Virus record (IMG/VR): IMGVR_UViG_3300031539_000039
Coordinates: 1 to 55,005 of that record
Origin: a virus
Taxonomy: Duplodnaviria; Caudoviricetes
Reading direction: 5' to 3' (one strand)
DNA: 55,005 nt
In this document: positions 138 through 52,607 of the stretch, in pieces
Layout: each line of letters starts with the position of its first letter
How positions within the stretch are numbered: the stretch's first letter is position 1
Made by a program: the position numbers and the translations under genes
Notes under the pieces: model-generated
Seen by the model: only the letters and a program-made list of their open reading frames with translations
What the model was told of the DNA's origin: nothing
Databases searched by the model: none

Positions 138-198
138 TGGAGCCGCTAACGGATACTGGTACCCGGAGAAGAGAGAGGTACACTGGAGGTCAGAGTAA
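13..198 (+). CDS. 3' part of DUF483-like Cys-rich protein that begins at 54251 and wraps the origin
   Basis: In-frame continuation WFYGLMYEKAPDACEML...REVHWRSE*; TAA at 196-198 overlaps the next ATG (TAATG). Confidence 0.85.
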   Translation, partial: WFYGLMYEKAPDACEMLLEALNMPMKWSLNNLIIYIEHPLFRGAANGYWYPEKREVHWRSE

Positions 199-665
199 TG
201 CTGCTCGATATACAGCTGAATCACTTTGGAAGAGGTTCGTGCACTATCAATCCCAGTCAACGACTCGTCAAAATAGGAATTGATCTGGCCTTGCAAGAGT
301 GGATATTAAAACACACAGGACTGATGTATCCGAATCCGAAAACCTATGCCTTTCCGTCCTATGCCTCATATATGGAATACAGCATAGCCCACGTTATTGC
401 GCACGAGGCTCTACATCAGGTTATCTACGATGAAGAAGGCTTTAGAGCCTGTAAAATGCTAGACAACGTTGACCAGTATGGAACCATGACGATGAGATAC
501 GGATATGAAGAGGACGTGTACTGGGGGATACAGTTTCGAAGAGTCCAATGGTGGAGGATATTCGACAATGATTTTGTGTTGAGGTATGACCTCCTGAAAA
601 AATTTGATGAGGCTCAAAGTAGATTGCAGGATAGGTTTGATAGGCAGGTGGAATTAGATAAATAA
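198..665 (+). CDS. HExxH-motif protein (zincin-like metallopeptidase or HExxH tailoring enzyme)
   Basis: IAHVIAHEALHQVI motif; translationally coupled to the upstream gene. Confidence 0.65.
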   Translation: MLLDIQLNHFGRGSCTINPSQRLVKIGIDLALQEWILKHTGLMYPNPKTYAFPSYASYMEYSIAHVIAHEALHQVIYDEEGFRACKMLDNVDQYGTMTMRYGYEEDVYWGIQFRRVQWWRIFDNDFVLRYDLLKKFDEAQSRLQDRFDRQVELDK

Positions 666-1362
666 CGCAGAGAAGAATCACATCCTTTTAGGTATGGACT
701 CCTGCCGATGGGATTCATTTACAATAGCAGATACACCGAACATAGACTCCCTAGGGAAGGCCATAAAGGTTCACTCGCCCGCAGGATGGACAGCGCCATC
801 AATGTTTCATCTGCTGACAAATGCACCATATTTCGGAAATCCTCGAACGAGATTCGTCCCTACCGAAAAAGGGGTCATCTGGGTTCCAAAGACTATGGCT
901 CAAAAGGGCTATCACAACGTCTTCTTTACCCCAAACCAAGTGATATACAAATACACTCATGCATTCCGACAGGGATTTCATGAAGTGGATTGGTACTGGG
1001 GAGAGTTCAAATATACGGCTAACCGTGACGTGGATAACGTAATTCGGGTCTTAAAAGAAGTAGAACAACCTAAATTCATACTAACCCTCTGTATGGCTAC
1101 ACACAAACCATTTGCATATAAAAAGGACCTTCCGAAAGAGTTTTTTGAGTCACCCACGCAAGGGATAGAATTTCAGGTTAGATCGATCGAGTCCTTAGAT
1201 AAGGAATTCGGTAGGGTACTGGATGTAGCCGAGAACGCCATCATAACCGTGTATTCAGATCATGGAACGTTGTTTAAAGAGTTAGAGGGCTATGACGGAC
1301 ATGGTCAGTGGCTGATGCATCCCAAACTGTTCGAGGTGCCGTTCATCCGTGGTAAAGTTTAG
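658..1362 (+). CDS. Alkaline phosphatase/sulfatase-superfamily protein (Thr-nucleophile type, possible phosphoryl/phosphoethanolamine transferase)
   Basis: NHILLGMDSCRWD metal-site strand, WTAPS, THKPF, SDHG..GH, VPFI. ORF track starts at ATG 694, but the first beta strand needs the ATA at 658 behind AGGTGG. Confidence 0.75.
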   Translation: MNNAEKNHILLGMDSCRWDSFTIADTPNIDSLGKAIKVHSPAGWTAPSMFHLLTNAPYFGNPRTRFVPTEKGVIWVPKTMAQKGYHNVFFTPNQVIYKYTHAFRQGFHEVDWYWGEFKYTANRDVDNVIRVLKEVEQPKFILTLCMATHKPFAYKKDLPKEFFESPTQGIEFQVRSIESLDKEFGRVLDVAENAIITVYSDHGTLFKELEGYDGHGQWLMHPKLFEVPFIRGKV

Positions 1363-2113
1363 CGGAGTATTCAGGTGTTATAAAAGACCTAACCTCACAG
1401 AGTTGTGCCTCCGAAGGATTATGGAGATGATGGAGCCGTATGACTTTGAACTCATTATGCTCTACGATGGTGACGACGAGAAATATATCAACCGTATGAA
1501 ACGGTTCTGTGATTTCAGTCACATAGTTTCAAATCCAAATAAGAAATATACGTTGGGGGAGCAGACAAACAAGGCAGTTGACTTATGTAGTGGTAGATAT
1601 TTCATGCACTTCGAAAACGACTACTATTGGGTTCATGGGTGTATGGAAGATGCGGTGGAGGCCATGAATTACGTGGATGTCGTTCGGTTGACGATGTTCC
1701 CCTTCAGCCGGAATAATTGTGAGAAGACCATGGGGAACATCGGGGTGTTTAAGGCAAATGTGGGTTACAGATTTAGTTTGAATCCACACCTTAGAAAAGA
1801 GAGATACCCTGTTGGTAGATTCTCACATACTGGAAGCTGGGTCGTCGAACCAGAGTATGTGGAGAGATTCAACAAGTCTGATAAGGTTGGAGGGTGTCTG
1901 TTGAAAAACAACTTTATCCATCTCGGCTTATATAATTCAAACGGACATTTCAGCCCAGGGCACACATCTTATTTCTTAGGATACAACTGGAGAAAACAAC
2001 AAGATGAACTTGATCCCGTCAGAACATTCACCTCTATCTGTGACAACGAAGAGTATATAGAATTATTCGGGGAATATTTACGTAGTAGTGGTGGAGAGAA
2101 ATGGTTGAACTAA
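1349..2113 (+). CDS. Glycosyltransferase, GT-A fold (GT2-like)
   Basis: CYKRPNLTELCL, LYDGDD, N.A....SGRYFMHFEND (DxD-like), FSLNPHLR, FIHLG. Confidence 0.75.
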   Translation: MVKFSGVFRCYKRPNLTELCLRRIMEMMEPYDFELIMLYDGDDEKYINRMKRFCDFSHIVSNPNKKYTLGEQTNKAVDLCSGRYFMHFENDYYWVHGCMEDAVEAMNYVDVVRLTMFPFSRNNCEKTMGNIGVFKANVGYRFSLNPHLRKERYPVGRFSHTGSWVVEPEYVERFNKSDKVGGCLLKNNFIHLGLYNSNGHFSPGHTSYFLGYNWRKQQDELDPVRTFTSICDNEEYIELFGEYLRSSGGEKWLN

Positions 2114-2865
2114 ACGGTAAGTTATTCGATGTAGAAAACATGACCACGCAACAGCGTGATAGAGGACTAGAGATAGTTCTGGAAAACTGTGGAGAACAAG
2201 CAGAGGTTGTCCTCTGTAGCCTCACAGGATCAAGAGCCTTCGGTTGGGGCGGGGACAGATACGATATGGACATCCATGGAGTGATCGCATCCCAAGGGCC
2301 TGGTTGGGACAATATGCATACCGGTAAGTTCGGTTACGACATCTCGATGTACAACTTCGACGTGTTCCTGATGGGTATGAGAGACCGGTGGATACTGTAC
2401 GAGAATTTATCAAATCCAATCTTCATTCACAAAGACTTCGACTTCAAAGGATTCCTATCCTTCTGCTGCCCGTTCCATGTCAAGCACCAGATGGGCACCA
2501 TAGAGATGGAGTTGCATACTTTGAGAAACAAGGAGACAATGCGAAAAGCCTTACACTGCTACCGACAGTTGGCCAATTCGCTGTGGTTCTTACAAACCGG
2601 TGAGGTACAGATTGATATAGGGAAAATTTATGAGAAATTCGAGATGGGTGAGTTTCCAAAGCTCTGTGAGTTTTACAAGGCGAGACAGTTAGGAGCTAAG
2701 TTAGACTGGCAGAAGATTTGGGCTGAACTGGGTGGATTGAAAGTTCAGATGGATCAACTGTTGGAAGAAAAACAAGACATATTTGATAAGGAGAGATTTG
2801 AGGAGTGGAAACAAGAAATGGTGGTGAAATTTATTGACTACAATATCAGGCGTCCTAACTTTTAG
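2101..2865 (+). CDS. Pol-beta superfamily nucleotidyltransferase (YcgL/RlaP-like) with helical C-terminal domain
   Basis: LTGSRAFG..DRYDMDIHGV signature (hG[GS]..DxD); KALHCYR..L..GE. Confidence 0.8.
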   Translation: MVELNGKLFDVENMTTQQRDRGLEIVLENCGEQAEVVLCSLTGSRAFGWGGDRYDMDIHGVIASQGPGWDNMHTGKFGYDISMYNFDVFLMGMRDRWILYENLSNPIFIHKDFDFKGFLSFCCPFHVKHQMGTIEMELHTLRNKETMRKALHCYRQLANSLWFLQTGEVQIDIGKIYEKFEMGEFPKLCEFYKARQLGAKLDWQKIWAELGGLKVQMDQLLEEKQDIFDKERFEEWKQEMVVKFIDYNIRRPNF

Positions 2866-3664
2866 GAACTGCATCAAGACAGGGTATCCATTCCTGGAGG
2901 CCATCCTATCTGTCCTACCGATAGTAGATGAGTATCGGATAAATGACGGCGGATCAATCGATGGCACTAAAGAGTGGCTACAAAAACTGAAGGATGTATT
3001 CCCAGATAAGATCATACTTTACGACATGCAAGACTACCCATCAGATAGATGGGAGTGTGTTAGTGAGCAATATAATAAAATGATCGAGGACTCAACTGGA
3101 GACTGGATGTTTCAAGGTGACGCGGATGAGGTAATCCATGAGCAAGACATCGGCGCCCTCAAGGCTGTAATCGAAAACATCTCTGATGATGTGGATGTAC
3201 TAAGGTTCCCAAGACGAGAAATTGGAGGATGGATGAGACTATCAGGTGCCGATAAACCATACCATCCATGTCGAGCGGTTAGAAACATTCCCGGGCTATA
3301 CCAAAAATGGGAGAGCCACGGCGGCGATGAGTTCTTAGACGAAGCCGGATGGATAAAAGAGCCGCGAAGACAGAAAAGCGATGTAATGATTTGGCATTTA
3401 TATACGGTTTTCCCGGGGAACAATATGGAGAAATGGAAAAATGACGCAACATACGTTGCAACCGGTGATGATCATAGAGTTAGGATATTCGAAGAACGTA
3501 AGAACAAGAGATGGTCTTCAGGTATAGATAGAGTCATCGTTAATCCAATTCCTAACTTACCGGCACTTGTGAAGGATATGGTGGGATGGGATAAATACAA
3601 GGTTAGAGGGACGCTTTTAGATATAGATTGGTTGAATTTTGTCACTGGTCTACGTTACGGTTAG
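2834..3664 (+). CDS. Glycosyltransferase, GT2-like
   Basis: ISGVLTFRN...YPFLEAILSVLPIVDE..INDGGSIDGT; GDWMFQGDADEVIHE. Confidence 0.85.
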   Translation: MTTISGVLTFRNCIKTGYPFLEAILSVLPIVDEYRINDGGSIDGTKEWLQKLKDVFPDKIILYDMQDYPSDRWECVSEQYNKMIEDSTGDWMFQGDADEVIHEQDIGALKAVIENISDDVDVLRFPRREIGGWMRLSGADKPYHPCRAVRNIPGLYQKWESHGGDEFLDEAGWIKEPRRQKSDVMIWHLYTVFPGNNMEKWKNDATYVATGDDHRVRIFEERKNKRWSSGIDRVIVNPIPNLPALVKDMVGWDKYKVRGTLLDIDWLNFVTGLRYG

Positions 3665-4821
3665 ACATCTGCATGTATAACAAAGGGTGGGCTGTTAGTA
3701 TGTGGGGTATCGCTGAAAGGTGTGTTGCTGTGAACGTTCATGAACGGGAAGTTAACATGACTCGGATTATCAGCAAACGGAATGTTTGAGTGGTCGCCAT
3801 GGGGCGGAAAGTTTACGTGCGATGGGTTATCGGCAAACGGAACGTTTGAGTGATCACCGTGAACTGGAAAGTTTATGTGGTTATCAGAGTAGAAGGGAGT
3901 ATTTGAGTGATCACTATGAGCTGGGAAATTTACATGGCTGTCAGGATATGCTGGGGTATTTGAATGGCTATCCCTGAACGAGGTATTACTGAAGGGGCTA
4001 TTTGAGTGGTCATTGTGAGCAGGAAAGTTTACGTGGCTATCACTATAGGTAGGAACGTTTGAGTGGTCACTATAGGCTGGAAAATTGACGTGACCAACAT
4101 CTGAGTGGTTAGAGTGTGCCTGATCAGTAAATTCATCACTATGTGACGTATCAACATACGAGTGGTCAGAATGGCCTTGATCAGAAAACGCATTACTGTG
4201 TGCTGTGTTACTAAACGGTCTATCTGAATGATCGTTACTATGTGCCGTATCAGTAAACGGATGGTTACTATGAACTTGGTCAGAATAGTCATTACTATGT
4301 ACTGTATCAGAGAAAGGATGGTTAGAGTGTACTTGGTCGATATATTCGTCACTATGGGGCGTATCTCCAAACGGTTGATTAGAGTGTACTTGGTCAGTAT
4401 ACTCATTACTGTGAGGATTATCTCCAAACGGTTGATTAGAGTGTACCTGAACTGGAACATTGCTATGAGGCAAATCTCCGAATGGACAGTCCTGATGCCC
4501 AGTTTCCCGTAGCAACCTGAAAGCCCTTGGCACTCCAGCCGTCGGCTGATAATCCCACGCACTGGCCGATGGATCCGCTCGGGGGACCGTATAAATGGAG
4601 TAAGTTGTTATATTCTTGTGAACACGGGGAACTCCACCAACTCCACCAACTTCCTCAGCTGGGAGGACTAAGCATATTTCACTATTCGCTGAGTTATAAT
4701 GATCGCAGTCACTATGGCAGACATCTTGGTGAGGTGGGCCAGCAACGTCAGCAAATGGAATGTTGGAATGCACTACATCACCGTGATGGTGAATAAACAG
4801 ACCGCGATACATAGTCGGCAT
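3661..4821 (-). CDS. His/Asp/Asn-rich repeat protein with ~64 aromatic-x-D/N triplets; last gene of tail operon; candidate rSAM substrate or fibre
   Basis: Repeats HSN, HSD, HVN, HGD, FGD, FSD, FAD, YSD, YTD; starts 12 nt after the tail hub gene; stop overlaps the stop of the convergent GT. Confidence 0.85.
   Translation of the reverse strand: MPTMYRGLFIHHHGDVVHSNIPFADVAGPPHQDVCHSDCDHYNSANSEICLVLPAEEVGGVGGVPRVHKNITTYSIYTVPRADPSASAWDYQPTAGVPRAFRLLRETGHQDCPFGDLPHSNVPVQVHSNQPFGDNPHSNEYTDQVHSNQPFGDTPHSDEYIDQVHSNHPFSDTVHSNDYSDQVHSNHPFTDTAHSNDHSDRPFSNTAHSNAFSDQGHSDHSYVDTSHSDEFTDQAHSNHSDVGHVNFPAYSDHSNVPTYSDSHVNFPAHNDHSNSPFSNTSFRDSHSNTPAYPDSHVNFPAHSDHSNTPFYSDNHINFPVHGDHSNVPFADNPSHVNFPPHGDHSNIPFADNPSHVNFPFMNVHSNTPFSDTPHTNSPPFVIHADV
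3670..4500 (-). repeat. Coding tandem repeats: ~19-aa units (PFxDxxHSNxYxDQVHSNx) followed by ~20-22-aa units (SHVNFPxHxDHSNxPFxD)
   Basis: 57-bp period visible in DNA, e.g. TATCTCCAAACGGTTGATTAGAGTGTAC at 4362 and 4419. Confidence 0.9.
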
Positions 4822-4833
4822 TCAGTCTTCCCT

Positions 4834-7800
4834 CTAAAGGTCGTTCCTCAACCAGATGTCGCCACTCGCAAGAGCCGCAGGATCTGCACCAACAGATGGA
4901 ATCCGGAGATTATCAGCCACCTGCACCTTATCGGGGAGCACCCATCCAGTCATGTAGGTGTACTGGGCCCCTCCGCCGGGAACAATGTAGATGTCGTCTC
5001 CTGCACCTGATGTGAGAAGAAGATCCTCTGCTGAGGCTAACTGAAGATAAGGATTAGCCCCGCCTATGCCGTAAACCCATCCACGGAAGACCCCCGCAGC
5101 ATCATTGAAAAAGATGAAGGTTCCGTTGATTGTTATACCCAACGCATCAAGTATGACTGTACCGCCACCAGCGAGAATCTTTCCATCAGTGGCTTGGAAG
5201 AGTGCCTGTAATGCTCCAGCTGCACCCTTTCCTTTAATACCATTCCGAGTGATGATAACTCCAGGGTCCCCAATCCCATCCGTCCAAGAGACTCCATCAG
5301 AAGTTTTCATTATCTTACCTATCAGAGCGTCACCAGTGAGCAAGATGGTATCTATTACCCCAGCACCCAAGAAGTCAAGAGTTTTACTCCCTCCTCGGGT
5401 GAATACAGGGAATATAAATGGTTCTTGCCCAGCTGCAGTGGTCACCCTGGCAATTATTCCCACTGTATCTCCTACAGCATTGGCATATGTGTTAGTCAGT
5501 GTAACTCCAGCACCCGTAGTGAATATCGCCCAATAGGTGTTATCAAGAGCAAGTGTATGATCAGTTCCATTAGCAATGTTTTGAGTTGTTCCATCTGCAA
5601 ACCAAACTGCAGGAGCAGCCCCCGTCCATTTAACTGCGTCAGTAACCGATACAATCATCTGCTCATCGTCAGTATTGTCCGCACCCGCAAGGGTGGTAGT
5701 TAAGGTGACTGATGCTCCTCCGCCTCCAACAGAATCTACTATTTTACCAGTACAATTATGTAACCATGGCGGCTCAGAGTTTTGAATTAATATCACATCT
5801 CCAGCGACGAAGTCTGAAAATGGTATCCCAGCAGATGCAGTGATTACAGCCTTCCCGGCACCATTATCAACATCAATATCAAGAGTCACAGTACTAGTAG
5901 CCACTACTCTGATGGCTTCAACTAGTACTGCACTATCAAATGGCTGTATACCTTTCTTTAGCTGTGTCGCGGATAGGGTTCCCGAGATGGTTGTCGCGGC
6001 AAAGTTGATCAGCGTCCACACGCCGGTCCACTCGTACCAGAGATCGTTAGTAGTGTCGTGCCACGTATCCCCGATAACTTCTCCGTTTGCAGGCGGTCCA
6101 GGAAAGGCCCGGTGCATGGTGATAGGGCCACGTACCCAAATCCCAGCGGTTTCATCCCACCGGTACCAGACGCCCTCATTGCCGTAGTAAACTCCCGGTA
6201 CACCTACATCCGTCGTGAGGTGGTGCATGTCCTCGTTGACAGGGTCAGTTGGGAATGCGGCTCCCTCGGTGAACCCCATACGGTCGCCCGTCAAGATGTC
6301 CCCAAGGAAGAGATCCCAGTCATCCATAGAGCCCTTGAACCCACGGTTCTGGCGGCGGAGCTCAGCGAGCATAGCGGCGTTAGGGTCCGTCGACCTGATA
6401 ACCCGGCCCGCATCAGCGTCAGTCGACACAAGATCGTAGGTCGTCCAGAAGTCGAATCCCCTAACATCAGACTTCTTTCTGAGGATGTGCTGAAGCCGGA
6501 CGATGATGTACTTCGTTAGTGCGTCTACCCCATGCTGGGGTGCCCGTACATGTACATATTGAGCCGCGTACAGGGTATCCACCTGGCCCTTAGCGACGGC
6601 CTTGAACTTAACTAGGGGATACCGCTTCATGAGCAGCACCCGGTCGCCATATGCCTTCAGCTGGGGCATCGACCGGAGCTCGTTACGGTACTCAGGGTAC
6701 ATCCTGTCATCGTACAGGCCTCTGCTCCCTGCATCCGCTGTAGTGTATTTCGCCTCTAGGCTGGGGATCGTCCAGCCGTCGATCCACACTATCCCGTTCT
6801 CGGCGTGAGGGTACTTGAAACCCATCTGAACTACATTATTCCAGTTAAACGGTGCCACCGATCCGGCGGCGAAGGTCCAGTAGCCATTCATCTCGGCACC
6901 CGTGGCCCTGATCGGGTTACCGTCGTGGTCCCCAAGGGGGTACGTGATCACGCTCCACTTACCGGCGCCAATATTCCAGTCTGGAATGTCTTCGGTGATG
7001 CCTTTACTCCCAGCCCCAGACTTCCTCCGGATGAACACAATCTCCTTCCCACCATCATCTACCAGGAATGGTCTGAAGTTGAACCGATCTTCAGCATCTC
7101 TCTCGCCTTTGATAAGCACCTTCGCCTGACAGAAAGGGGACAGGTCAATGGAGCCGGTGTAGCCGTATAGTGTACCCGCGAAGTTCAGGTAGGCGCTTGA
7201 GGCGCCAGTACATGTCAACTCGATGCTGCCGAGGCCGTAGATGAAGTGGGTGGTAGTTTCGCTGGCGATAGCCCCGCCACCGCCGGCGGTCCAACCTGTG
7301 GGGTTCTCCTCGGTGTAGTGGTCCTTGACGTTTCCGGCGGAGATCTCAATGATGTTCCTAATATCCCCGCCCTCCTGCTCAAACTCGTCGAAGGAAAGCA
7401 GGTTGTTTGTGGGGTCCCCAACTAGGCTGATGAGGTCAACGGTGGAATCAATGGTGCCTGATGCGAAGATATGAAGCTCGTTAGCGTTGTCAATGTAGGA
7501 GTCGTATGCCATCAGGTCACATATCTCACGAACAGCGTCACAGAGGAAGGTTCTCTTTCCCTCATACTTGATGCTCGGGGTTCCACCTGGGTCTGCATAT
7601 GTCCAGGGGTCGTTTGCTCCTCCAAACATGGAGAATATGTCGAGGAGTATCGCCCCCCCTGGCTGGGTTTTGTACTTCTTCGTGAAGTAAAGGTCAGCCC
7701 CATACCGACCGTAATCCGTGCCAGTTATTAGGAGTTCATTGGTATAGACTCCCTTCTCAGTCAGGTATGGCACCACGTCCTTAACCTTGCCCGCGAATAT

Positions 7801-7986
7801 TGGAGCCCCATTGATGGCGAGGGCGATCGCGTCGTTTGAGGCGAATGTGCCGCCCCAGATGTCGGCCGGGTTCGCCAGCCTTATCTTGCAAGTGCCAATG
7901 TTGTTAACCTTGTTCTTCTGAACATCAGAATCCACCACATAGTTACTGACAACGTTCCCGCCTATCGTGCACGTCGTGTCAGTCAT
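4834..7986 (-). CDS. Tail tip/baseplate hub protein with fibre-like C-terminal extension
   Basis: N-terminal hub pattern (GTCKIRLAN...IFAGKV...ITGTDY...YID..NELHIF), carbohydrate-binding-like insert, Gly-rich beta C-terminus, GDTWHD/GDIWL motifs; position after tail genes. Confidence 0.7.
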   Translation of the reverse strand: MTDTTCTIGGNVVSNYVVDSDVQKNKVNNIGTCKIRLANPADIWGGTFASNDAIALAINGAPIFAGKVKDVVPYLTEKGVYTNELLITGTDYGRYGADLYFTKKYKTQPGGAILLDIFSMFGGANDPWTYADPGGTPSIKYEGKRTFLCDAVREICDLMAYDSYIDNANELHIFASGTIDSTVDLISLVGDPTNNLLSFDEFEQEGGDIRNIIEISAGNVKDHYTEENPTGWTAGGGGAIASETTTHFIYGLGSIELTCTGASSAYLNFAGTLYGYTGSIDLSPFCQAKVLIKGERDAEDRFNFRPFLVDDGGKEIVFIRRKSGAGSKGITEDIPDWNIGAGKWSVITYPLGDHDGNPIRATGAEMNGYWTFAAGSVAPFNWNNVVQMGFKYPHAENGIVWIDGWTIPSLEAKYTTADAGSRGLYDDRMYPEYRNELRSMPQLKAYGDRVLLMKRYPLVKFKAVAKGQVDTLYAAQYVHVRAPQHGVDALTKYIIVRLQHILRKKSDVRGFDFWTTYDLVSTDADAGRVIRSTDPNAAMLAELRRQNRGFKGSMDDWDLFLGDILTGDRMGFTEGAAFPTDPVNEDMHHLTTDVGVPGVYYGNEGVWYRWDETAGIWVRGPITMHRAFPGPPANGEVIGDTWHDTTNDLWYEWTGVWTLINFAATTISGTLSATQLKKGIQPFDSAVLVEAIRVVATSTVTLDIDVDNGAGKAVITASAGIPFSDFVAGDVILIQNSEPPWLHNCTGKIVDSVGGGGASVTLTTTLAGADNTDDEQMIVSVTDAVKWTGAAPAVWFADGTTQNIANGTDHTLALDNTYWAIFTTGAGVTLTNTYANAVGDTVGIIARVTTAAGQEPFIFPVFTRGGSKTLDFLGAGVIDTILLTGDALIGKIMKTSDGVSWTDGIGDPGVIITRNGIKGKGAAGALQALFQATDGKILAGGGTVILDALGITINGTFIFFNDAAGVFRGWVYGIGGANPYLQLASAEDLLLTSGAGDDIYIVPGGGAQYTYMTGWVLPDKVQVADNLRIPSVGADPAALASGDIWLRNDL

Positions 7987-18071: not shown

Positions 18072-18566
18072 CTATTCGGGTGCATCATACTCAACTCTGA
18101 GTTTGGGCTCCCCTTCCACAAGTTCTACGTATAGGTTTGTGACTTTAAACATTCCGTCTGGAGCTCGTGTCATCACTGGGTTCACATCCAGCTCCTTGAT
18201 CCACATAGGAGCAAATAACATGTAGTCCGTGCCGTATGCCACCCCAATGGATTGATGCCACCCGGCCCAGTCAGGAGGTTCCTGTGTAAGCCCTCCGGGC
18301 ACCGACGAAGCGTATATGGCCCCATCCTCCCATGACCATTCGAGGTTGCTGACCAGTCCGTACAGCAGGATTCTGCCCTTGTAATTGGGGGGAAGATCGC
18401 TCAGCGCCATGCCGTAAGCTGGCAAGGTAGGAGACGTATTCCTATCTGCTTTGAACCATTTACCTGCGGTGAGGTGGACTAGATCATACTTGGCGAGAGT
18501 GTGTCCTGCGATACCCTCAGTTATGAGCCCGTCCCCTTCTCTTTTGGGCTTGATCACATATGGCAC
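18072..18566 (-). CDS. Head decoration/cement-like protein; paralog of 16352-17236
   Basis: Closely similar first ~125 aa. Confidence 0.65.
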   Translation of the reverse strand: MPYVIKPKREGDGLITEGIAGHTLAKYDLVHLTAGKWFKADRNTSPTLPAYGMALSDLPPNYKGRILLYGLVSNLEWSWEDGAIYASSVPGGLTQEPPDWAGWHQSIGVAYGTDYMLFAPMWIKELDVNPVMTRAPDGMFKVTNLYVELVEGEPKLRVEYDAPE

Positions 18567-21325: not shown

Positions 21326-22204
21326 TCAGCTCAGCCCCTCAATGGTTGTGATCCATTCCTCCGCTCTCTTCTTCCAAGTCCAGTTCTTAAGCACAAGTTC
21401 CCTGCTTCTCTCCCCCATTTCACGCTTTTTATCTGGGTTCTCCTTCAGGTAGATAAGCGCGTCAACAAACTCCTTCTTGGTGTTGCAGATGAATCCATTG
21501 CCATCTATCAGTCCCTCCCTGACATATCCTACATCCGTTGAGATGATGGGTAAGCCGCAAGCTGCGGCTTCAAGAAGCGTCAGCGGTCCCCCGGCCGATG
21601 AGAATGTACATAGAAAAACGTGTAGTTGGTTGTATCGTCTCGGCATCTTCTCACGCGGAACCCTGAATTTACCTCTCGTATCTATAAGATAACTTGTAAC
21701 TTGTGCGTTCGCGCAGATGGGGTTGAACCAATTATCTATCCTCTCCGCCCTACTCTTCCAGTTGTCCTGGTTTCCGCCTCTCCCGGTGATTCCGGCGAAG
21801 TGTCTCTTCTTAACATTCAGGGGTCGGAACATCTTTGTGTCTACGCCCGTGGGTCTGACGAAGAAGGTCGTGTACCGGAGCTTGTCGCGGATCAGGGAGC
21901 TGGACTGGGCGAAGATGTATTTGAAGATGCTCCAATCCTTTATCCTGCCGTAGGTCTTCATCCCTCCCAGCCAGGCGATGAATTTGGGGCGGATCTCCTT
22001 CTTGAAGAGCGTGGTTTCGTAGGTGTCCTGCCCGAGTAGTGGGCTGATTATCCAGTCGTATTCCCTGAGGTTCTTCGTGATCTTCTGGGTGTTGATCAGG
22101 TCGAAGGTGTAGCTGGGTCTGTCCACCCACCTCTTGAAGTCCTCCATGATGAAGTTGAAAGCCCACCGCTGGCTCCCTTCAGGGCATAGGAGGGCGATTC
22201 TCAT
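21326..22204 (-). CDS. Glycosyltransferase GT4
   Basis: PTGVDT..F.P; GGPLTLLEAAACGLPIISTDVG. Confidence 0.9.
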   Translation of the reverse strand: MRIALLCPEGSQRWAFNFIMEDFKRWVDRPSYTFDLINTQKITKNLREYDWIISPLLGQDTYETTLFKKEIRPKFIAWLGGMKTYGRIKDWSIFKYIFAQSSSLIRDKLRYTTFFVRPTGVDTKMFRPLNVKKRHFAGITGRGGNQDNWKSRAERIDNWFNPICANAQVTSYLIDTRGKFRVPREKMPRRYNQLHVFLCTFSSAGGPLTLLEAAACGLPIISTDVGYVREGLIDGNGFICNTKKEFVDALIYLKENPDKKREMGERSRELVLKNWTWKKRAEEWITTIEGLS

Positions 22205-24116: not shown

Positions 24117-24946
24117 ATCATCACACCCCAGTCGCACGCATTCCGCCTGATTGAATACTCGCTTTTCTTGATCAGTCGGTTTATCTCGTATTGACGTTGC
24201 ACGATCTCCATCCCAATCGACTGGTGTAGCCTCATCGGAGGATGCCACTGATGGTAGAACCGCATGTTAGGATCATAGTTTTCCTCTATTTCGTAGCTCT
24301 CTATTTCACGGTCTATCTCAGCTCGTCTACGCAAGTCGCCGTCCTCATGGCCATACATCTTCATCCTCTCGTCGAAACCCCTCACCTTCATCCACCAGCT
24401 TTGTGGTGCGCTCATGAAGCCTCCGACGCTTCTTTTGATATACCTCGGATTGCCGGCTCTTAGCTTCTCATAGTCTCTAGGCAGATCCATGTTTTCAACC
24501 TCAACAGTCTCGTCTAAAAGGTAGGGTGCCATCATGATCAGCCGAGGCCTCTCTATGTGAATGTTGAGGGCGCATTTAAGAACCGAAGGCATCAACACGC
24601 AGTCTGCGTCCAGTGTCGCAACGTATTCGCCTCTCGCCCTCCTCAGCCCAATGTTCCGCGAGAGTGACATGCTCCACGCGTCCATGGTTGGGAAGCGGAG
24701 CACGGTGCAGTCGAACGGCTCAAGCGTCGCCATCAACCGCCTGTGGTTCTCAGGGGTGGAGCCGTAGTCGACTACGATTACCTCAAGGCTTCCCACGGTT
24801 TGAAGCTGAAGGCTCCTCAGGCAGTTCCTCACCCTCGCGCCATAAAGGTTCCCCACGGGTACGATGATGGAGTAGATGGGCGCCTCTATCTCCTGAACAC
24901 GAACTATCTCAACATACGGGGGCCCGGACTGCCTGCGGCTCTTCAT
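24113..24946 (-). CDS. Glycosyltransferase GT2 (galactosyltransferase-like C-terminus)
   Basis: SIIVP, VIVVDYGS, SRNIG..ARGEY...LDAD, GFDE...YGHED.DL, HQWH. Confidence 0.9.
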   Translation of the reverse strand: MKSRRQSGPPYVEIVRVQEIEAPIYSIIVPVGNLYGARVRNCLRSLQLQTVGSLEVIVVDYGSTPENHRRLMATLEPFDCTVLRFPTMDAWSMSLSRNIGLRRARGEYVATLDADCVLMPSVLKCALNIHIERPRLIMMAPYLLDETVEVENMDLPRDYEKLRAGNPRYIKRSVGGFMSAPQSWWMKVRGFDERMKMYGHEDGDLRRRAEIDREIESYEIEENYDPNMRFYHQWHPPMRLHQSIGMEIVQRQYEINRLIKKSEYSIRRNACDWGVMI

Positions 24947-26418
24947 CGGGGGAGCACCCTGCGAACAGGTTTATCCCATAGCTTTGGCTGAGCTGGTTCG
25001 AATCCCCACTTCTTTTTGAAACGATCCTTAGAAGCTTCATTTCGTTTAATGTCTCGACGCAGCAGATTATACTCAGCGCTGTCATAACAGGGTATAATTC
25101 CTTTAGAGGTGACTAGATATTTATGATGGGCCACGGCGTCTCCGCAGACAGCCATCCGAAGCCCCGCCTTCCTTATCTCTTGGCTCCAGTCCCAGTCATT
25201 CCATCCAAAGTCGTATTCTGTATCGTAAGGAATAAGCGGGTCTAGTTTGAAGGCTGTGAAGCCAGAGGATACAAACTGCACCTCCGCGGTTTGCTTCACC
25301 AAGGGAAGAACGTGGTGCTGTGTTTCACCCTCTTCGTGGGTTATGTAGCCGCCTAACATTCGATTCATGCCTTTCTGGATGACGCCGCCTGCTATGGCGT
25401 GGTATTGTGGGTTTTCCGCTAACGCTCTGATGAGGGCTTCAATGCTTCCTGGGTGTGGTAAGATGTCATCATCGAGGGTTAACATGTATCTGTACCCTTC
25501 CTTTCCGAAAGCCTCCATCGCCTCTGTTCTGATCTCTGAGAGTTTTCGTGGCTCTGGGTTGTCAATGACGTCTACAGCCCATCTACCTCGCCAACACTTC
25601 AGAGCCTCCATCTGCTTGGGACTCCTGTCGCCTTGGTTGACTAGGCGAACCTTCAGGGGCATCCTGGTCCTGAAGATTGCTCTCATAACTTGGTCGATAT
25701 AGTAGGGTCGTTCCAGCGTCGCAACTAGGACCCCTACCTCTGGGTTATACGGGGTCACTCTATGGAGATTGTCCTTGTAATCCATCCGTTTCTTCGCCCA
25801 TAAATCCATGTTTCTCTGCTGGTTCGGGTGGACTCTCAGGTGGTGTTGATGACTGCCCTTCAGACCAGGCTCGTATCGAAGCCTTATGCCGCTATGGTAA
25901 CACCTCGCACCAAAGTCGTGATCCTCGGCACCCCAGCCAGAGTCGTATTCCGTGTCGAATAAACCCACGAGCTTTGCTCTGCTCCTTGAGAACAGCATAC
26001 ATCCATCCAAGGCCTTCCAGGCGCCCATGTAAGAATCATCCAGCCACCTGGAGCCCTCACCTGGTGTTGCTTGGTTCCCTGTAAACAGGACACTTGGATC
26101 AAAAACTCTGCGTGCATTCTCTAGGAAGTGTGGGTTCGGGATACAATCGGGGGCAAGGATGGTCACAGCGTCGTTCTTAGCGGATCTTATACCAAGGTTG
26201 CGTAGAGTGTTCAGCCTGTGAATGCGTTGGTCAAGTTTCGGTGGCCTCACAATAGTTAACGCCTGGCAGCCGCATATGCCTATGCCTGAGGGAGAGTGGT
26301 CGTCGACGACGATCACCTCATCGTCGGGGTTCAGCTGAAGTTTGAGTTCATTGAACGTCTTTTTGAATGCCCTCTTCTTCTCATAGAACGGGATCACTAT
26401 GCTTATGCCTATTGCCAT
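24943..26418 (-). CDS. Two-domain GT2 glycosyltransferase
   Basis: ISIVIP..VVDDHS..LRNLG..FDTEY..WGAED; second domain LTLDDD..DWDW. Confidence 0.9.
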   Translation of the reverse strand: MAIGISIVIPFYEKKRAFKKTFNELKLQLNPDDEVIVVDDHSPSGIGICGCQALTIVRPPKLDQRIHRLNTLRNLGIRSAKNDAVTILAPDCIPNPHFLENARRVFDPSVLFTGNQATPGEGSRWLDDSYMGAWKALDGCMLFSRSRAKLVGLFDTEYDSGWGAEDHDFGARCYHSGIRLRYEPGLKGSHQHHLRVHPNQQRNMDLWAKKRMDYKDNLHRVTPYNPEVGVLVATLERPYYIDQVMRAIFRTRMPLKVRLVNQGDRSPKQMEALKCWRGRWAVDVIDNPEPRKLSEIRTEAMEAFGKEGYRYMLTLDDDILPHPGSIEALIRALAENPQYHAIAGGVIQKGMNRMLGGYITHEEGETQHHVLPLVKQTAEVQFVSSGFTAFKLDPLIPYDTEYDFGWNDWDWSQEIRKAGLRMAVCGDAVAHHKYLVTSKGIIPCYDSAEYNLLRRDIKRNEASKDRFKKKWGFEPAQPKLWDKPVRRVLPR

Positions 26419-35709: not shown

Positions 35710-36963
35710 TTATATCTTCTCCGCAGTCTCTCCCGTGTAGGCTTTGAAGCGGTCTAGGATGATCTGGCAGTAACGGGGGTCGAGTTCTATCATGTAGCCT
35801 TGGCGGTCTAGTTGCTCGCACGCGATGAGAGTGCTGCCGCTTCCGGCGAAGGGGTCCAGGACAATCTCCCCGGGGAGGCTGCTGTTCCCTATGGCGCGTG
35901 AACAGAGTTCCACAGGTTTCATGGTGGGGTGGAGCTTGCTCTGCTGGGGTTTGGGGATGTCCCAGACGGTGCGCTCGTTCTTCCCATAGAACTTGTGTTT
36001 GCCCATCCAGCAGTAGACGATGAGTTCATGTTTGCCCATGTAGTCCGTTCTGCCTATGACGGAGTTGTTTTTATTCCAGACGAGGACTTGGCTTAGGTAA
36101 TAGTTGTTCAGGTCCAGGGCTATGAGTAGTTCTTTGATTGTTTTTCCGGCTATTGTTATGTATATGGTGTTGTATTCTGTGAGACTGTTTTTCATAGCTT
36201 CGAGCCAGTCATGTAGGAATGCGGTGTAGTCCAGTATGGCGTCGTTTATTATCGCGGTTTGGATACGATTGCCTTTGTCAAATTTGTTTAGGAACTCGTT
36301 TTTACTGGCGTAGTCTACGTTGTAGGGCGGGTCGGTCATGACCATGTGGGCCTGCTTGCCATCGAGTATCTTGATGAAGGTTTCCTCTTTGGTGCTGTCC
36401 CCGCATAGTATCCTGTGGGGGCCCACCTTGTAGAGGTCTCCGAACTCTATGTCGGTGACCACTTCCTCTAGGGGCGGTATCCTGTATGTGTCCTCTTTGA
36501 TCTTACCCTCGAGAGCGTCCTTGATTGCCTTCTCGCCGATCTGCAGGATGCTGATAAGCTCCTTGCGTCTGCCGCCCTCTATGAGGCGCCGGTACTCGAG
36601 GAGATCCTTATCTGGGTCGTGTATGCCTCGGAGCTTGTTCGTGATCTGCCTGAGTAACCGCCTGTCCACATCGTCGACGTCGAGGCGTAGGACGGGACCA
36701 TAGTATTCCTTGTGGGCGAGGCATGTCTCTAGGCGCTGTTCGCCGTCTCCGAGCATGCCTTTCTTGTCGACTAGGATGGGGTAGACCCAGCCATATTTCT
36801 GCATGCTTCTCCAGAGACCCTCTCTGACGCGCTTGGTCATGCGATTAGGATTGTCAGAATCCTTGGTGAGTTCGCGGAGATCCTCGATGAGGGGCTTGTA
36901 CTCCTCTGGGATGTGTATCTGGGTTTTCATGTTGTTCCCTTCTTTACTAACAGGCAGGTGCAT
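35710..36963 (-). CDS. ParB-like N-domain plus N6A/N4C DNA methyltransferase
   Basis: NPN.M....L..S...YG...PILVD....GDGEQR; HRILCGDS, TDPPYN, HPTMKP, LDPFAGSGST; likely start ATG 36930. Confidence 0.9.
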   Translation of the reverse strand: MHLPVSKEGNNMKTQIHIPEEYKPLIEDLRELTKDSDNPNRMTKRVREGLWRSMQKYGWVYPILVDKKGMLGDGEQRLETCLAHKEYYGPVLRLDVDDVDRRLLRQITNKLRGIHDPDKDLLEYRRLIEGGRRKELISILQIGEKAIKDALEGKIKEDTYRIPPLEEVVTDIEFGDLYKVGPHRILCGDSTKEETFIKILDGKQAHMVMTDPPYNVDYASKNEFLNKFDKGNRIQTAIINDAILDYTAFLHDWLEAMKNSLTEYNTIYITIAGKTIKELLIALDLNNYYLSQVLVWNKNNSVIGRTDYMGKHELIVYCWMGKHKFYGKNERTVWDIPKPQQSKLHPTMKPVELCSRAIGNSSLPGEIVLDPFAGSGSTLIACEQLDRQGYMIELDPRYCQIILDRFKAYTGETAEKI

Positions 36964-37740: not shown

Positions 37741-39300
37741 TTAAGGGTCTTTGAATTGGGTTAGTGGGGTGACGCCTTCGGGTCGGGGCTTGTATCTGCC
37801 ACGGATGCGTTTCTCCGCCATCTCGGCGTACTCCGGGTTTATCTCGATGCCTATGAATCTGCGACCAAGTCGGCGGGCTACTCTTAGAGCTGTGCCTGAC
37901 CCTGCGAAGGGGTCCAGAACCACGCCTCCGACCCAGTCGGCTCCGCATCCACAGTCAGACCAACCAGCCGTTTCTCTTTCATTCACATATTCAACGCCTT
38001 GTTCTCTTGCTGCTTGTCTTAATAATGCGAGGCGGTTAGCACTGGTTCCTTTCAGATATTTGCTCTCAGTTTCACCAGTGTGAAGAGTGAATTTGGGTTC
38101 AGTTATTCTTGTTCGTGGTTTTCCGCATCGGCTGCATATCCACCGGGGGCACCCTGCCTTCACGATGGGCTTGATTAATTTGGGTGGGAAGGTGGCGAAG
38201 TGGGCTCCAGGGAAGGGCGTTGTAGGGATACGCCAGAGGTCTCCGGGGTTCTTACCTTTAGGATGATAGAAGTTCTCATCATGATGGTGCTCCACCAGAT
38301 ATGGATAGTTTTCATCGGATTTTCTTCGTCGTTGTGTTCTGGCTCTTGGCGAGCCATACTTCTCTGATTCTTCACCAATACCGTCGAATTTACCTTGATA
38401 TTTCTCAGCTAATGATTTAACCATGTCAGCACTTCGTGAGCCCCTGTCTTTGGGTGATTTCTTCTTACCCCTTAACGCAATCTGTTTTTCTCCACCTTGT
38501 TGATTCATCACGTTAGGTTGAGTGACACGCTGAATTGTAGAAGCTGAATGAGGCTTCCTTATTGCGTCGAGGTCGAAGTAGTAGCGCCGTGCCTTGGCGA
38601 AGAGGAACACATGCTCGTAGGCACAGGTGAGTCGGTCTTTGACGCTGCTGGGCATGTGATTGGGTTTGTGCCAGATTATGTCGTTGCGGAGTATCCAGCC
38701 GTCGTGCTGGAGGGCGATGGCGACTCGTGCGGGGATCATGAGAAGTTGCTTAGGCTGAAGCCAGCCACCATCTGATTTTAACATTCTATTGGGATTCTGT
38801 TCTCTCGTAAGTTCCTTGAAGGCGTCTTGTGGGAGAGAGGTTGCGCCTCCACCTGGGTTGTAGCATTTTCCTTTCATTGAAGCGTATGAGTCGCCTAGGT
38901 TGATCCAGAACGTGCCCGACGGCTTCAGCACTCGTTTGATTTCAAGGCATATCTCGGCGAGGTGGTCGATGAATAATTGGGGGTGGGGTTCGAGGCCTAG
39001 GCTGCCACGCCAAGCCCCACATTCAGAGCAGAAATCGCTTTTCTGATCTTCTCCTCTTAAAGTCCCTAAGTTTGTGGATTGCTTCCCTTCCCCGCCCTGC
39101 TTATTGAATGAAGCCGTTTCCTCAGCCCACTCGTGTTCGCATTCGGGGTCGCCGCCCCACATCTTTATAGTTTCAGATCCATAGTCTCTGAGGCCCCAAT
39201 AAGGTGGGCTAGTCACCACGAGGTCGATGCTGTCCTCTGGCCACCCAGCCATGACCTCAGTGCAGTCGCCGACTATAACTTGGTTTAGGGGTAGACTCAT
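37741..39300 (-). CDS. N4C/N6A DNA methyltransferase with Zn-finger inserts
   Basis: VTSPPYWGLRDY, IIWHKPN, HFATFP, VLDPFAGSGT, IGIEIN. Confidence 0.92.
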   Translation of the reverse strand: MSLPLNQVIVGDCTEVMAGWPEDSIDLVVTSPPYWGLRDYGSETIKMWGGDPECEHEWAEETASFNKQGGEGKQSTNLGTLRGEDQKSDFCSECGAWRGSLGLEPHPQLFIDHLAEICLEIKRVLKPSGTFWINLGDSYASMKGKCYNPGGGATSLPQDAFKELTREQNPNRMLKSDGGWLQPKQLLMIPARVAIALQHDGWILRNDIIWHKPNHMPSSVKDRLTCAYEHVFLFAKARRYYFDLDAIRKPHSASTIQRVTQPNVMNQQGGEKQIALRGKKKSPKDRGSRSADMVKSLAEKYQGKFDGIGEESEKYGSPRARTQRRRKSDENYPYLVEHHHDENFYHPKGKNPGDLWRIPTTPFPGAHFATFPPKLIKPIVKAGCPRWICSRCGKPRTRITEPKFTLHTGETESKYLKGTSANRLALLRQAAREQGVEYVNERETAGWSDCGCGADWVGGVVLDPFAGSGTALRVARRLGRRFIGIEINPEYAEMAEKRIRGRYKPRPEGVTPLTQFKDP

Positions 39301-52547: not shown

Positions 52548-52577
52548 TCCTCCCGATTCATATGGAGGGGTGTTGGA

Positions 52578-52592
52578 CAATATATATAAAAC
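52578..52592. promoter_or_regulatory. Bidirectional TATA tract between protease and rSAM operon
   Basis: AATATATATAAAA between divergent starts. Confidence 0.5.
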
Positions 52593-52607
52593 AAGCCCAC
52601 CGCGTAG

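Follow-up and report, generated by a model that had tools for sequence, protein, structure and literature searches.

The viral sequence analyzed here (the window, 55,005 nucleotides) encodes a 386-aa repeat protein, P0001, which is quite likely the substrate of a radical SAM/SPASM enzyme, P0002, of the same phage. The functional link between the enzyme and the array protein is well supported by sequence comparison, because the co-occurrence of their genes is strongly positive and the same arrangement was found in three cultured Thermus phages. Since array proteins, radical SAM enzymes and DUF483 proteins adjoin in many other phages, the enzyme probably modifies the aromatic-x-D/N repeats chemically. 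Among the readings considered, we lean towards the one in which P0001 is the substrate of a phage protein-modification module that makes triceptide-type crosslinks and thereby a stiff tail appendage. The preliminary description of this DNA had proposed that the virus applies a RiPP-type radical SAM enzyme to a structural protein; the link between enzyme and array stands, while the remainder of that proposal, including the virion location and the mechanical role of the array, is inferred. The features of the locus are given in Table 1.

Table 1. Features of the array gene and the radical SAM operon in the window
Feature	Position	Strand	Remarks
3′ end of the DUF483-like gene, past the terminal repeat	138..198	+	
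155-aa protein	198..665	+	No family; homologue in 0/76 viral loci
Short alkaline-phosphatase-superfamily protein ("Sulfatase", PF00884)	694..1362	+	T-A-P-S-M; not conserved with the module
GT2 glycosyltransferase	1349..2113	+	Homologue in L001 only
Protein without recognised family	2101..2865	+	L079 homologue matches RlaP-type nucleotidyltransferase
GT2 glycosyltransferase	2834..3664	+	Homologues downstream of the module in 17/76 loci
Repeat protein P0001, 386 aa	3661..4821	−	64 aromatic-x-D/N triplets; putative substrate
Main array, P0001 residues 106–386	3664..4506	−	Period 19 aa = about four aromatic-x-D/N units
Non-repeat module, P0001 residues ~44–103	4513..4692	−	GGVPR..K..TT..IY.V
N-terminal mini-array, P0001 residues 13–43	4693..4785	−	HGD, HSN, FAD, HQD, HSD, HYN
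1050-aa structural protein	4834..7986	−	Directly upstream of P0001; no family; weak match to L001 counterpart
Radical SAM/SPASM enzyme P0002, 428 aa	52968..54254	+	CX3CX2C at C11/C15/C18
C-terminal tail of P0002	54150..54239	+	Two RPHGDHYDE copies, residues 395–403 and 416–424
DUF483-like protein, 271 aa	54251..55005, continuing at 138–198 across the terminal repeat	+	Invariant P-x-C-C

The Aromatic-x-D/N Array of P0001

Based on a regular-expression count, P0001 contains exactly 64 [HFY]x[DN] triplets, the number that had been estimated by hand, against 16.2 ± 3.1 in 2000 residue shuffles (z about 15). The excess was found both for H.[DN] (41 vs. 8.9) and for [FYW].[DN] (23 vs. 7.5). Other spacings (+1, 2 vs. 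16.3; +3, 8 vs. 16.1) and the reversed order with D/N before the aromatic residue (14 vs. 16.3) were not enriched over the shuffles. In the main array, 57 of the 68 aromatic residues carry D/N at +2 with a varying middle residue, in line with the preliminary description. By residue, these are 35 of 38 His, 14 of 22 Phe and 8 of 8 Tyr, with 27 Asn and 30 Asp at +2; in the opposite direction, an aromatic residue stands at −2 for 57 of the 64 D/N. Of the 386 residues in the protein, 121 are His, Asp or Asn.

The repeat copies share only 63–80% DNA identity, and in their alignment D/N is constant while the aromatic column exchanges Y, H and F and the middle residue is variable. For these reasons, the motif is under selection and not merely the product of recent duplication. 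Of the 128 stop-to-stop frames in the window that span 100 aa or more, only that of P0001 is of this kind.

No family matches were obtained for P0001 in Pfam, NCBIfam or PHROGs, including the pentapeptide-repeat and other curated repeat models. Nine other array proteins were compared with Pfam, of which eight had no match and one (L034) matched only PF21722, outside its repeats. The non-repeat module of P0001 is common to L001, P0003 and L079, is also found as free-standing small proteins, and was modelled by AF2 as four short strands with low confidence. The AF2 model of P0001 as a whole (12-row alignment, pLDDT 42.2) gave no fold and is uninformative for or against any reading; the ESM Atlas model of the L066 array protein had a pLDDT of 0.45. 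Sequence searches with P0001 returned 2 relatives in a 5.8-billion set and 21 in a 1.84-billion representative set, so array proteins are hard to retrieve by sequence and the numbers of relatives say nothing on their abundance. Scans of viral contigs with the single sequences P0001 and P0002 gave no matches, and a scan with the L028 array protein recovered just the contig of that protein and one that had been found before.

The Radical SAM/SPASM Enzyme and Its Operon

The earlier assignment of P0002 to the radical SAM/SPASM enzymes was confirmed by PF04055 (57.5 bits, cut-off 29.5) and the SPASM model TIGR04085 (30.9, cut-off 27). The three cluster cysteines are invariant in 29 sequences of the family, as are eight cysteines of the C-terminal half (C245, C250, C269, C298, C301, C307, C311 and C327); the SPASM motif CX2CX5CX3C of P0002 is located at 298–311, and there is no N-terminal extension ahead of the cluster motif.

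[quoted passage not shown] In all 29 family members scanned, the best model matches were DynA, anSME, AmcB, TIGR04083, DarW, YhhB and GrrM/OscB, several of them named cyclophane-forming maturases. P0002 scored far under the curated cyclophane-synthase cut-offs (AmcB, 72.3/425; YhhB, 51.6/445; GrrM/OscB, 46.9/310; FxsB, 30/370; XyeB, 25.8/450), and the cut-offs of these models were reached by none of the 29 members. P0002 also scored under the cut-offs of the HxsB model (30.4 vs. 370) and of the anSME equivalog models TIGR03942 (64.4 vs. 349) and PRK13758 (44 vs. 441). The only solved relative of P0002 found by sequence was an anSME (PDB 4k36, E 1.2e-10), to which it is as close as to the cyclophane synthases.

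The enzymes themselves resemble the array at their C-termini. At least two H-x-D/N units, mostly H-G-D, close the tails of 57 of 69 family members, relatives of P0002 having 2–16 of them, and in one enzyme tail H and Y interchange as KP[HY]GD. Nineteen of 70 radical SAM enzymes with an array neighbour are devoid of an H-x-D/N tail.

Because the window carries a terminal repeat (12–137 = 54880–55005), the radical SAM operon runs through the window end to the array gene. The stop overlap reported between the P0001 gene and a convergent gene (TTAG, 3661–3664) is present. The convergent operon was said to adjoin the array gene, which is so only via the terminal repeat, and the P0002 gene itself lies about 4.3 kb and six genes away on the opposite strand. 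Terminase, portal and tail genes are located upstream of the P0001 gene on the same strand, the 1050-aa gene ending 13 nt ahead of it. The description of P0001 as the last gene of the tail operon thus agrees with its position, which is the sole basis for it. Homologues of the protein without recognised family (2101..2865) adjoin the radical SAM gene in L027, L078 and L079. A protease gene (51546–52703, phrog_20754) adjoins the operon, with a homologue in only 1 of the 76 viral loci, and two DNA methylases are encoded elsewhere in the window.

The DUF483-like Partner

The window DUF483-like protein scored 19.3 against PF04467, under the gathering score of 25. Since its relatives in L042 (26.8) and L055 (32.5) reach this score, it is a divergent relative of DUF483. 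The gene is present in 67 of the 76 viral loci. Fusions of DUF483 were found to the radical SAM enzyme (L084), to a class-I methyltransferase (L042, L055 and L035) and to GT2 (L046).

The AF2 model of the protein is confident (pLDDT 94.3). Foldseek gave nothing at E ≤ 0.001 (best E 0.18), and the best VIA-align row was 2guk, of unknown function (Z 6.6, rmsd 3.2 over 105 residues); for 4r29, of the NleE-like cysteine methyltransferase fold, Z was 4.8 (rmsd 2.7 over 101 residues), so that no solved fold was a clear match. Complex prediction weakly supports contact between the radical SAM enzyme and the DUF483-like protein, with a score of 0.50 vs. 0.00 for the best of three controls. Among solved complexes, 58 of 80 attain the mark used for this score, compared with 2 of 110 mismatches; only 7 of the 80 complexes, but both mismatches, do so with scores of 0.60 or less. 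In these runs, contact agreement was at least 0% and the pLDDT of the partner at least 77.

Linkage of the Enzyme and the Array in Other Loci

To the 76 viral loci, which are the IMG/VR matches of the radical SAM alignment A1, 8 MAG loci were added for BLAST clustering. A motif-rich ORF was found in 53 of the 76 viral loci and was directly upstream on the same strand in 37. Based on the clustering, the array family is present in 69 of the 84 loci, and 83 of its 87 members are encoded upstream in the same orientation; the arrays of L008 and L016 had been missed through gene calling alone. Dereplication at 90% radical SAM identity left the array in 49 of 56 clusters and the DUF483-like gene in 52 of 56, and at 60% identity the array was retained in 30 of 33. 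This is a strongly positive outcome for the proposal that the radical SAM and DUF483-like pair co-occurs with aromatic-x-D/N repeat proteins at the ends of tail operons. Up to 3 kb from the radical SAM gene, 57 of 834 ORFs were motif-rich, whereas beyond 5 kb this was true of 0 of 724. When fresh loci were picked by DUF483 alone, the radical SAM gene was found in 35 of 36 and both it and the array in 34 of 36. Three MAG loci (L077, L080 and L084) contain a radical SAM relative without an array.

In 79 distinct array proteins, D/N occupies +2 after 95% of 2860 His, 60% of 494 Phe, 46% of 924 Tyr and 44% of 261 Trp, and other offsets reach at most 45%. His accounts for 2860 of the 4539 aromatic residues. 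The arrays form the C-terminus of fibre-like proteins of 700–1400 aa at the end of tail modules; an example is L034, where such a protein has PF21722 and tail PHROGs. In a variant locus, L083, the 1444-aa upstream protein closes with four aromatic-x-K pentads.

Cultured Thermus Phages

The gene order in the Thermus phage Cumys is baseplate, tail collar fibre, array protein, radical SAM enzyme, DUF483, and the array, radical SAM and DUF483-like parts are as in Cumys in the phages phiMa and phiLo. The Thermus enzymes share 27–29.5% identity with P0002 over 96–99% of the query (tblastn), and the module enzyme carries an HGD tail. The third protein of the module is an H-x-D array with a triple GSxWxEG domain; for this N-terminal domain, Atlas scores were 0.82 or lower, and the structural rows, which pointed to clusters of phage tail-fibre type, were weak. 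Thus, the Thermus and window modules are alike in having homologous radical SAM and DUF483 proteins and an array as the third gene at the end of the baseplate or tail genes. They differ in that the array gene of the window is convergent and not directly upstream, although it is also convergent in phiLo and L001.

The preliminary description knew of no described example of such a system. In fact, a three-gene "rSAM module" has been noted in Cumys and phiMa, with DNA modification as the guessed function (PMC11437467; bioRxiv 10.1101/2024.08.14.607894), and what holds of the claim is that the passages searched do not mention the repeats for it. In PMC11437467, the third protein is called "unknown"; the main text uses "histidine" 0 times and has no "repeat" passage on the module. 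A literature search for a prior description, covering article text, found only the papers on the Thermus module, triceptides and HXS.

Proposed Mechanism and Alternative Readings

The following scheme may be suggested for the window phage. The module would comprise P0002, the DUF483-like partner and extra tailoring genes, namely two GT2, an AP-superfamily enzyme and a nucleotidyltransferase-like protein. The radical SAM enzyme would most likely remove a hydrogen atom from the D/N residue in every aromatic-x-D/N unit, and this residue would then be joined to the aromatic ring two residues upstream to give a triceptide-type three-residue crosslink. Such crosslinks, repeated tens of times along one polypeptide, could give the distal end of the tail an appendage that is stiff and resists heat and proteases. 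DUF483 is probably an adaptor through which the tailoring enzymes reach the array, and the H-G-D tail of the radical SAM enzyme may be a substrate-like element for docking, priming or self-modification. We know of no radical SAM enzyme that modifies 60–130 sites on one large protein.

Aromatic-to-Cβ crosslinking is put forward as the chemistry only tentatively, by analogy with the triceptide synthases (3-CyFEs: XyeB/XncB, GrrM/OscB, FxsB, YhhB, HaaB, HtkB and AmcB). These enzymes crosslink aromatic1-X2-X3 motifs, in HAA, HNR and HTK from His-C2 to the Cβ of residue 3, as described in PMC11499958. Both systems have a radical SAM/SPASM enzyme and a linked substrate of this type, often repeated. 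However, the putative substrate of the window family is a protein of 170–1400 aa with up to 130 motifs and not a short leader-plus-core peptide. The window system is also encoded by a virus, in tail modules; DUF483 is its partner protein, the tail of its enzyme resembles the substrate, and P0002 is under the cut-off of every curated model.

If the arrays are crosslinked, radical SAM/RiPP-type chemistry would operate on a structural protein of a virus, and with as many as about 130 motifs in one chain the site density would be one unreported for any protein in the literature searched. This would give a role to DUF483 and to a noted but unexplained phage gene module, and would extend the natural protein materials by a new class that is genetically encoded and "stapled". 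It is conceivable, if rather doubtful, that many bacterial and probably archaeal tailed phages finish their fibres with a radical SAM-stapled "poly-cyclophane" tip of tens to over 100 aromatic-x-D/N units, as a virion part proof against heat and proteases, for which DUF483, as a new adaptor domain, would recruit the radical SAM enzyme, methyltransferase and glycosyltransferase and the HGD tail would serve as a built-in, substrate-like handle. Since the complete module is present in three phages of Thermus thermophilus that are in culture (Cumys, phiMa and phiLo), the idea is directly testable.

Modification of the array by other radical SAM chemistry, such as D/N epimerisation, a change of His, a small carbon insertion of the kind reported for HxsA (+8 Da) or the priming of sites on which the methyltransferase or glycosyltransferases would then act, seems unlikely to us. 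The linkage data are equally compatible with it, no curated cyclophane model was reached, and DUF483 occurs fused to methyltransferase and GT2 domains. A precedent is the HXS anti-phage system, in which HxsA, with five H-x-S repeats, is matured by the radical SAM enzymes HxsB and HxsC with HxsD; the change in HxsA is radical SAM-dependent and amounts to +8 Da at one site, not to a −2 Da crosslink (PMC13128918). As is proposed for the window, a radical SAM enzyme, in HXS bound by a small partner, matures a full-size protein with His-x-X repeats, but HXS is bacterial and defensive and has two radical SAM enzymes, five repeats and a basic DNA-binding effector, whereas the window system has one enzyme and tens of H-x-D/N units, which are acidic, and is set among phage tail genes. 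What argues for crosslinking is the conserved aromatic residue (H/F/Y/W) with D/N at +2 and a free middle residue, which is the triceptide motif pattern; epimerisation or His-specific chemistry does not account for F, Y and W taking the place of H.

Alternatively, the arrays could be unmodified metal-binding His/Asp(Asn) ladders, with the radical SAM enzyme and DUF483 serving another function and the HGD tail binding metal or the array. The much stricter D/N at +2 of His (95%) than of Phe, Tyr and Trp (44–60%) and the abundance of His, Asp and Asn in P0001 agree with this, and H-x-D...H resembles a 2-His-1-carboxylate site. We regard such ladders as improbable, however: they explain neither the togetherness of radical SAM enzyme, DUF483 and array (49/56 lineages; 34/36 DUF483-chosen loci) nor the F/Y/W-x-D/N units and the KPYGD units of one enzyme tail. 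In addition, about half of the +2 residues of P0001 are Asn, a poor metal ligand.

The second option of the preliminary description, in which the array protein would be a very large multi-core precursor from which numerous small modified peptides are released, is very unlikely. Triceptide precursors with multiple motifs do exist (PMC11499958), and the protease gene adjoins the operon, but its homologue is confined to a single locus, the arrays are C-terminal fusions to long fibre-like proteins and close the tail modules, and no conserved cleavage site or leader is visible. Equally hard to maintain is the modification of DNA by the radical SAM/DUF483 module with the adjoining array gene being unrelated, as might be thought from the cyanobacterial homologues in deazapurine contexts, the DUF483–methyltransferase fusions (PMC11437467) and the two DNA methylases of the window. 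Apart from DUF483, no neighbour is as constant as the array gene, the tail of the enzyme repeats the array motif, the best family matches are peptide or protein maturases and anSME, and the module is located in tail modules.

The assignment of P0002 as an anaerobic sulfatase-maturating enzyme (anSME) for the "Sulfatase" gene, suggested by the solved relative, the place of anSME among the top NCBIfam matches and the PF00884 gene in the same operon, has almost no probability and was rejected. The TIGR03942 score is far under its cut-off. Sulfatases bear the formylglycine motif C/S-x-P-x-R; the PF00884 protein has T-A-P-S-M instead, its homologues occur in 0 of the 76 loci, it had no sequence relative in the PDB, and no C/S-x-P-x-R substrate is linked to the window radical SAM family. 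What P0002 does have in common with the anSME of known structure is a SPASM architecture that lacks an N-terminal recognition domain, and a substrate, putative for P0002, that is a protein and not a short peptide.

Repeat Protein P0001 and Its Motif

The gene closing the minus-strand structural block encodes P0001, a repeat protein in which [HFY]x[DN] triplets occur exactly 64 times, compared with 16.2 ± 3.1 in residue shuffles; the preliminary description had counted about 64. Only the +2 offset was enriched: neighbouring residues (+1) gave 2 pairs against 16.3 expected, the +3 offset gave 8 against 16.1, and the reversed order, with D/N before the aromatic residue, gave 14 against 16.3. Within residues 106–386, D/N stands at +2 for 57 of the 68 aromatic residues (H 35/38, F 14/22, Y 8/8), and 57 of the 64 D/N have an aromatic residue at −2. 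The repeat period is 19 aa. In the aligned copies the aromatic column exchanges (Y/Y/Y/H/F, F/F/F/F/Y and Y/H/H/H/H), D/N is kept and the middle residue varies, so the earlier remark that most aromatics have D/N at +2 around a variable residue was correct. Since the DNA copies have diverged to only 63–80% identity and the aromatic residues are swapped at constant D/N, the triplet is under selection. Among the 128 window frames of at least 100 aa, P0001 was the sole one with this property.

Array Proteins in Related Loci

Related arrays were found in three settings: behind a domain of about 100 aa with three GSxW[VI]EG..L.YID..G..R units; at the C-terminus of 700–1400-aa proteins, one of which has PF21722 and tail PHROG matches; and around a small GGVPR..TT..IY module (P0001, P0003 and proteins of loci L001 and L079), which also occurs as small stand-alone proteins. 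Across 79 distinct array proteins, the share of aromatic residues with D/N at +2 was 95% for His, 60% for Phe, 46% for Tyr and 44% for Trp, values biased upward because the regions were chosen by motif.

In a Deltaproteobacteria MAG locus (L083), the gene just upstream of that for a distantly related rSAM encodes a 1444-aa protein. Its C-terminus carries four aromatic-x-K pentads (PHIKI, PYIKA, PHVKA and PHVKG), in which Lys stands in for D/N. A short C-terminal tail of the form H-x-D-S-[EQW]-[YF] recurs in many long array proteins, and others finish with Q-P-V-[FLR]-V-G (L026, L030, L034, L037, L045 and L075); these shared tails may be conserved array end-caps.

Co-occurrence of the rSAM, DUF483-like and Array Genes

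An rSAM alignment search yielded 76 IMG/VR loci and 8 MAG loci. A motif-rich ORF (at least 15 motifs, density at least 0.09) was present in 53 of the 76 IMG/VR loci, and in 37 it lay directly upstream on the same strand. By BLAST clustering of neighbours, the array family was found in 69/84 loci, a count that leaves out L008 and L016, missed through gene calling alone; 83 of 87 array proteins were same-strand upstream of the rSAM gene, and a DUF483-like/GT2 cluster was found in 72/84 loci. When the rSAM sequences were dereplicated at 90% identity, an array was present in 49 of the 56 clusters and a DUF483-like gene in 52; at 60% identity, the corresponding numbers were 30 and 31 of 33. Among the seven array-less clusters (of 56), L018 and L035 are cut short, a short array can be seen by eye in L078, L083 has the aromatic-x-K form, and L077, L080 and L084 show no array. 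As an internal control, 57 of 834 ORFs less than 3 kb from the rSAM gene were motif-rich versus 0 of 724 ORFs more than 5 kb away.

A search by DUF483 alone gave 72 new loci, 36 of them not overlapping with the earlier ones. The rSAM gene was present in 35/36 and both rSAM and array in 34/36 (31 of 33 groups when near-identical loci were merged). The association of the rSAM and DUF483-like pair with repeat proteins, which the preliminary description had proposed to look for, holds from either starting point.

The rSAM and DUF483-like pair also occurs in three Bathyarchaeota MAG records (L078–L080, genome_contigs), which include a 2.9-Mb chromosome and may represent archaeal hosts or proviruses. 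L079 additionally encodes an array protein that shares the GGVPR module with P0001.

The rSAM Enzyme and Its DUF483-like Partner

The rSAM/SPASM enzyme of the window, P0002, has CX3CX2C at residues 11–18, no N-terminal extension before this cluster motif, and eight invariant Cys in its SPASM domain. P0002 falls below the cut-off of every curated family model scanned; the top matches of 29 scanned family members were DynA, anSME, AmcB, TIGR04083, DarW, YhhB and GrrM/OscB. Its family comprises 68 metagenome clusters (69 members with P0002), and 57 of the 69 carry at least two H-x-D/N units C-terminal to the SPASM domain, mostly H-G-D and in up to 16 copies. The P0002 tail contains RPHGDHYDE twice, and that of a relative in a further locus, L123, about 25 KP[H/Y]GD units in which the aromatic residue alternates between His and Tyr. 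The 838-aa rSAM protein of L029 has a long insert directly after CX3CX2C, which, as read from the sequence, resembles an intein that includes a homing endonuclease.

The DUF483-like protein was found in 67 of the 76 viral loci. Its AF2 model is confident (pLDDT 94.3), and no solved fold stands out in structure comparison. Fusions of DUF483 to rSAM (L084), methyltransferase domains (L042, L055 and L035) and GT2 (L046) were observed; passages of the Cumys phage paper likewise describe fusions to methyltransferase or rSAM domains (PMC11437467). Complex prediction for the rSAM and DUF483-like proteins scored 0.50 versus 0.00 for the best of 3 controls, which is weak support: of the 58 of 80 solved complexes and 2 of 110 mismatched pairs that passed the mark, 7 complexes and both mismatches did so with scores of 0.60 or less. 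We infer that DUF483 is probably an adaptor for tailoring enzymes.

Relation to Known Systems

Among 50,697 phage records, the rSAM matched three, all from Thermus thermophilus phages (Cumys, phiMa and phiLo). In Cumys, baseplate genes are followed by a tail collar fibre gene, a small ORF, gp13, rSAM and DUF483. Cumys gp13 and phiMa_29 have H-x-D arrays C-terminal to a triple GSxWxEG domain, and the Cumys and phiLo rSAM enzymes have H-x-D tails. The array protein phiLo_137 closes a run of large genes convergent with the rSAM operon, the same layout as in the window. The system of the window belongs to the three-gene "rSAM module", described as spread in prophages in passages of the Cumys paper (PMC11437467). 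The word "histidine" is absent from the main text of that paper, and no passage on the module there speaks of a repeat (PMC11437467).

The module occurs in over 100 viral contigs and also in some MAGs, among them the three Bathyarchaeota records. In the searched literature we found no prior recognition of the third gene as an aromatic-x-D/N array, no description of the substrate-like rSAM tail, and neither this spread nor the tail-fibre context. The bacterial defence system HXS, as presented in the abstract and one section of its paper (PMC13128918), is set apart by its genes, its type of repeat and its context.

Possible Function of the Module

Triceptide synthases are rSAM/SPASM enzymes that bond an aromatic ring to the C-beta two residues on (aromatic1-X2-X3), and their known His motifs include HAA, HNR and HTK, according to part of PMC11499958. 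The arrays follow the same logic: the first position is H/F/Y/W, the second is free, and the third is fixed as D/N in most lineages and as K in L083. The system of the window would work alike, yet it is a member of no curated triceptide-synthase family. This motif logic, the right superfamily and subgroup, and the motif in the enzyme's own tail make modification of the arrays by the enzyme the best-supported reading. We regard the array as quite probably the rSAM substrate. By analogy with triceptides, the enzyme would join the aromatic ring to the C-beta of D/N in each array triplet; such cyclophane formation is plausible, though we hold it at a little under an even chance. The combined statement, that the enzyme modifies the arrays and, loosely speaking, most likely does so by triceptide-type crosslinks, is slightly favoured.

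Five alternatives were weighed. The foremost is another rSAM chemistry on the same motif. Next, the arrays could be unmodified metal ladders, and, third, a multi-core precursor that is cleaved. In fourth place is an unknown DNA modification, the proposal made for the module in passages of the Cumys paper (PMC11437467). The weakest takes the enzyme for an anSME, its only solved sequence relative.

Organization of the Window

Coordinates of features in the window and in related loci
Feature	Location	Strand	Length
Repeat protein P0001	3661–4821	−	386 aa
rSAM/SPASM enzyme P0002	52968–54254	+	428 aa
DUF483-like gene	54251–55005 and 138–198	+	
Terminal direct repeat, exact	12–137 = 54880–55005		126 nt
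Alkaline-phosphatase-superfamily protein	694–1362		222 aa
Glycosyltransferase gene	1349–2113		
Nucleotidyltransferase-like protein	2101–2865		254 aa
Glycosyltransferase gene (second GT2, last of operon)	2834–3664	+	
Direct repeat, 71% identity	16952–17235 and 18282–18565		284 nt
Glycosyltransferase gene (structural module)	21329–22204		
Glycosyltransferase gene (structural module)	24946–26418		
N6/N4 DNA methylase gene (PF01555)	35713–36963		
N6/N4 DNA methylase gene (PF01555)	37744–39300		
Protease (phrog_20754, E 1.9e-44)	51546–52703		385 aa
Protein upstream of rSAM relative	L083:5629–9963		1444 aa
rSAM relative with KP[H/Y]GD tail	L123:6052–7689		
rSAM with insert	L029:8879–11395		838 aa

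The window represents a tailed-phage genome, estimated by IMG/VR as 94% complete. The minus strand carries terminase, portal, protease and tail genes, with the P0001 gene last, beginning 13 nt after a 1050-aa gene on the same strand. IMG/VR classes the record as linear despite the terminal repeat; bases 1–11 do not match 54869–54879 and lie outside it. Given this repeat, the plus-strand operon from about 52608 runs on through the window end, which cuts the DUF483-like gene in two. In order, it encodes rSAM/SPASM, DUF483-like, a 155-aa unknown, a short PF00884 protein, GT2, a nucleotidyltransferase-like protein and a second GT2. The TTAG stop overlap reported earlier is real and the operon is convergent with the P0001 gene, from which the rSAM gene itself is separated by about 4.3 kb and six genes.

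The four glycosyltransferase genes suggest that virion proteins are glycosylated, or else the array, where Ser/Thr frequently fills the middle position. The 254-aa protein has counterparts directly upstream of rSAM in L027, L078 and L079, the L079 copy with an RlaP-type nucleotidyltransferase match (PF10127, 25.5 bits). The 222-aa protein, without a homologue in related loci, has Thr at the sulfatase Cys/Ser position and Met at the Arg position; it may be of phosphotransferase or phosphodiesterase type. The methylase genes adjoin the terminase region. The 385-aa protease gene is divergent from the rSAM operon, with a homologue only in L027. The 284-nt direct repeat, within the structural gene block, suggests a duplicated domain or gene.
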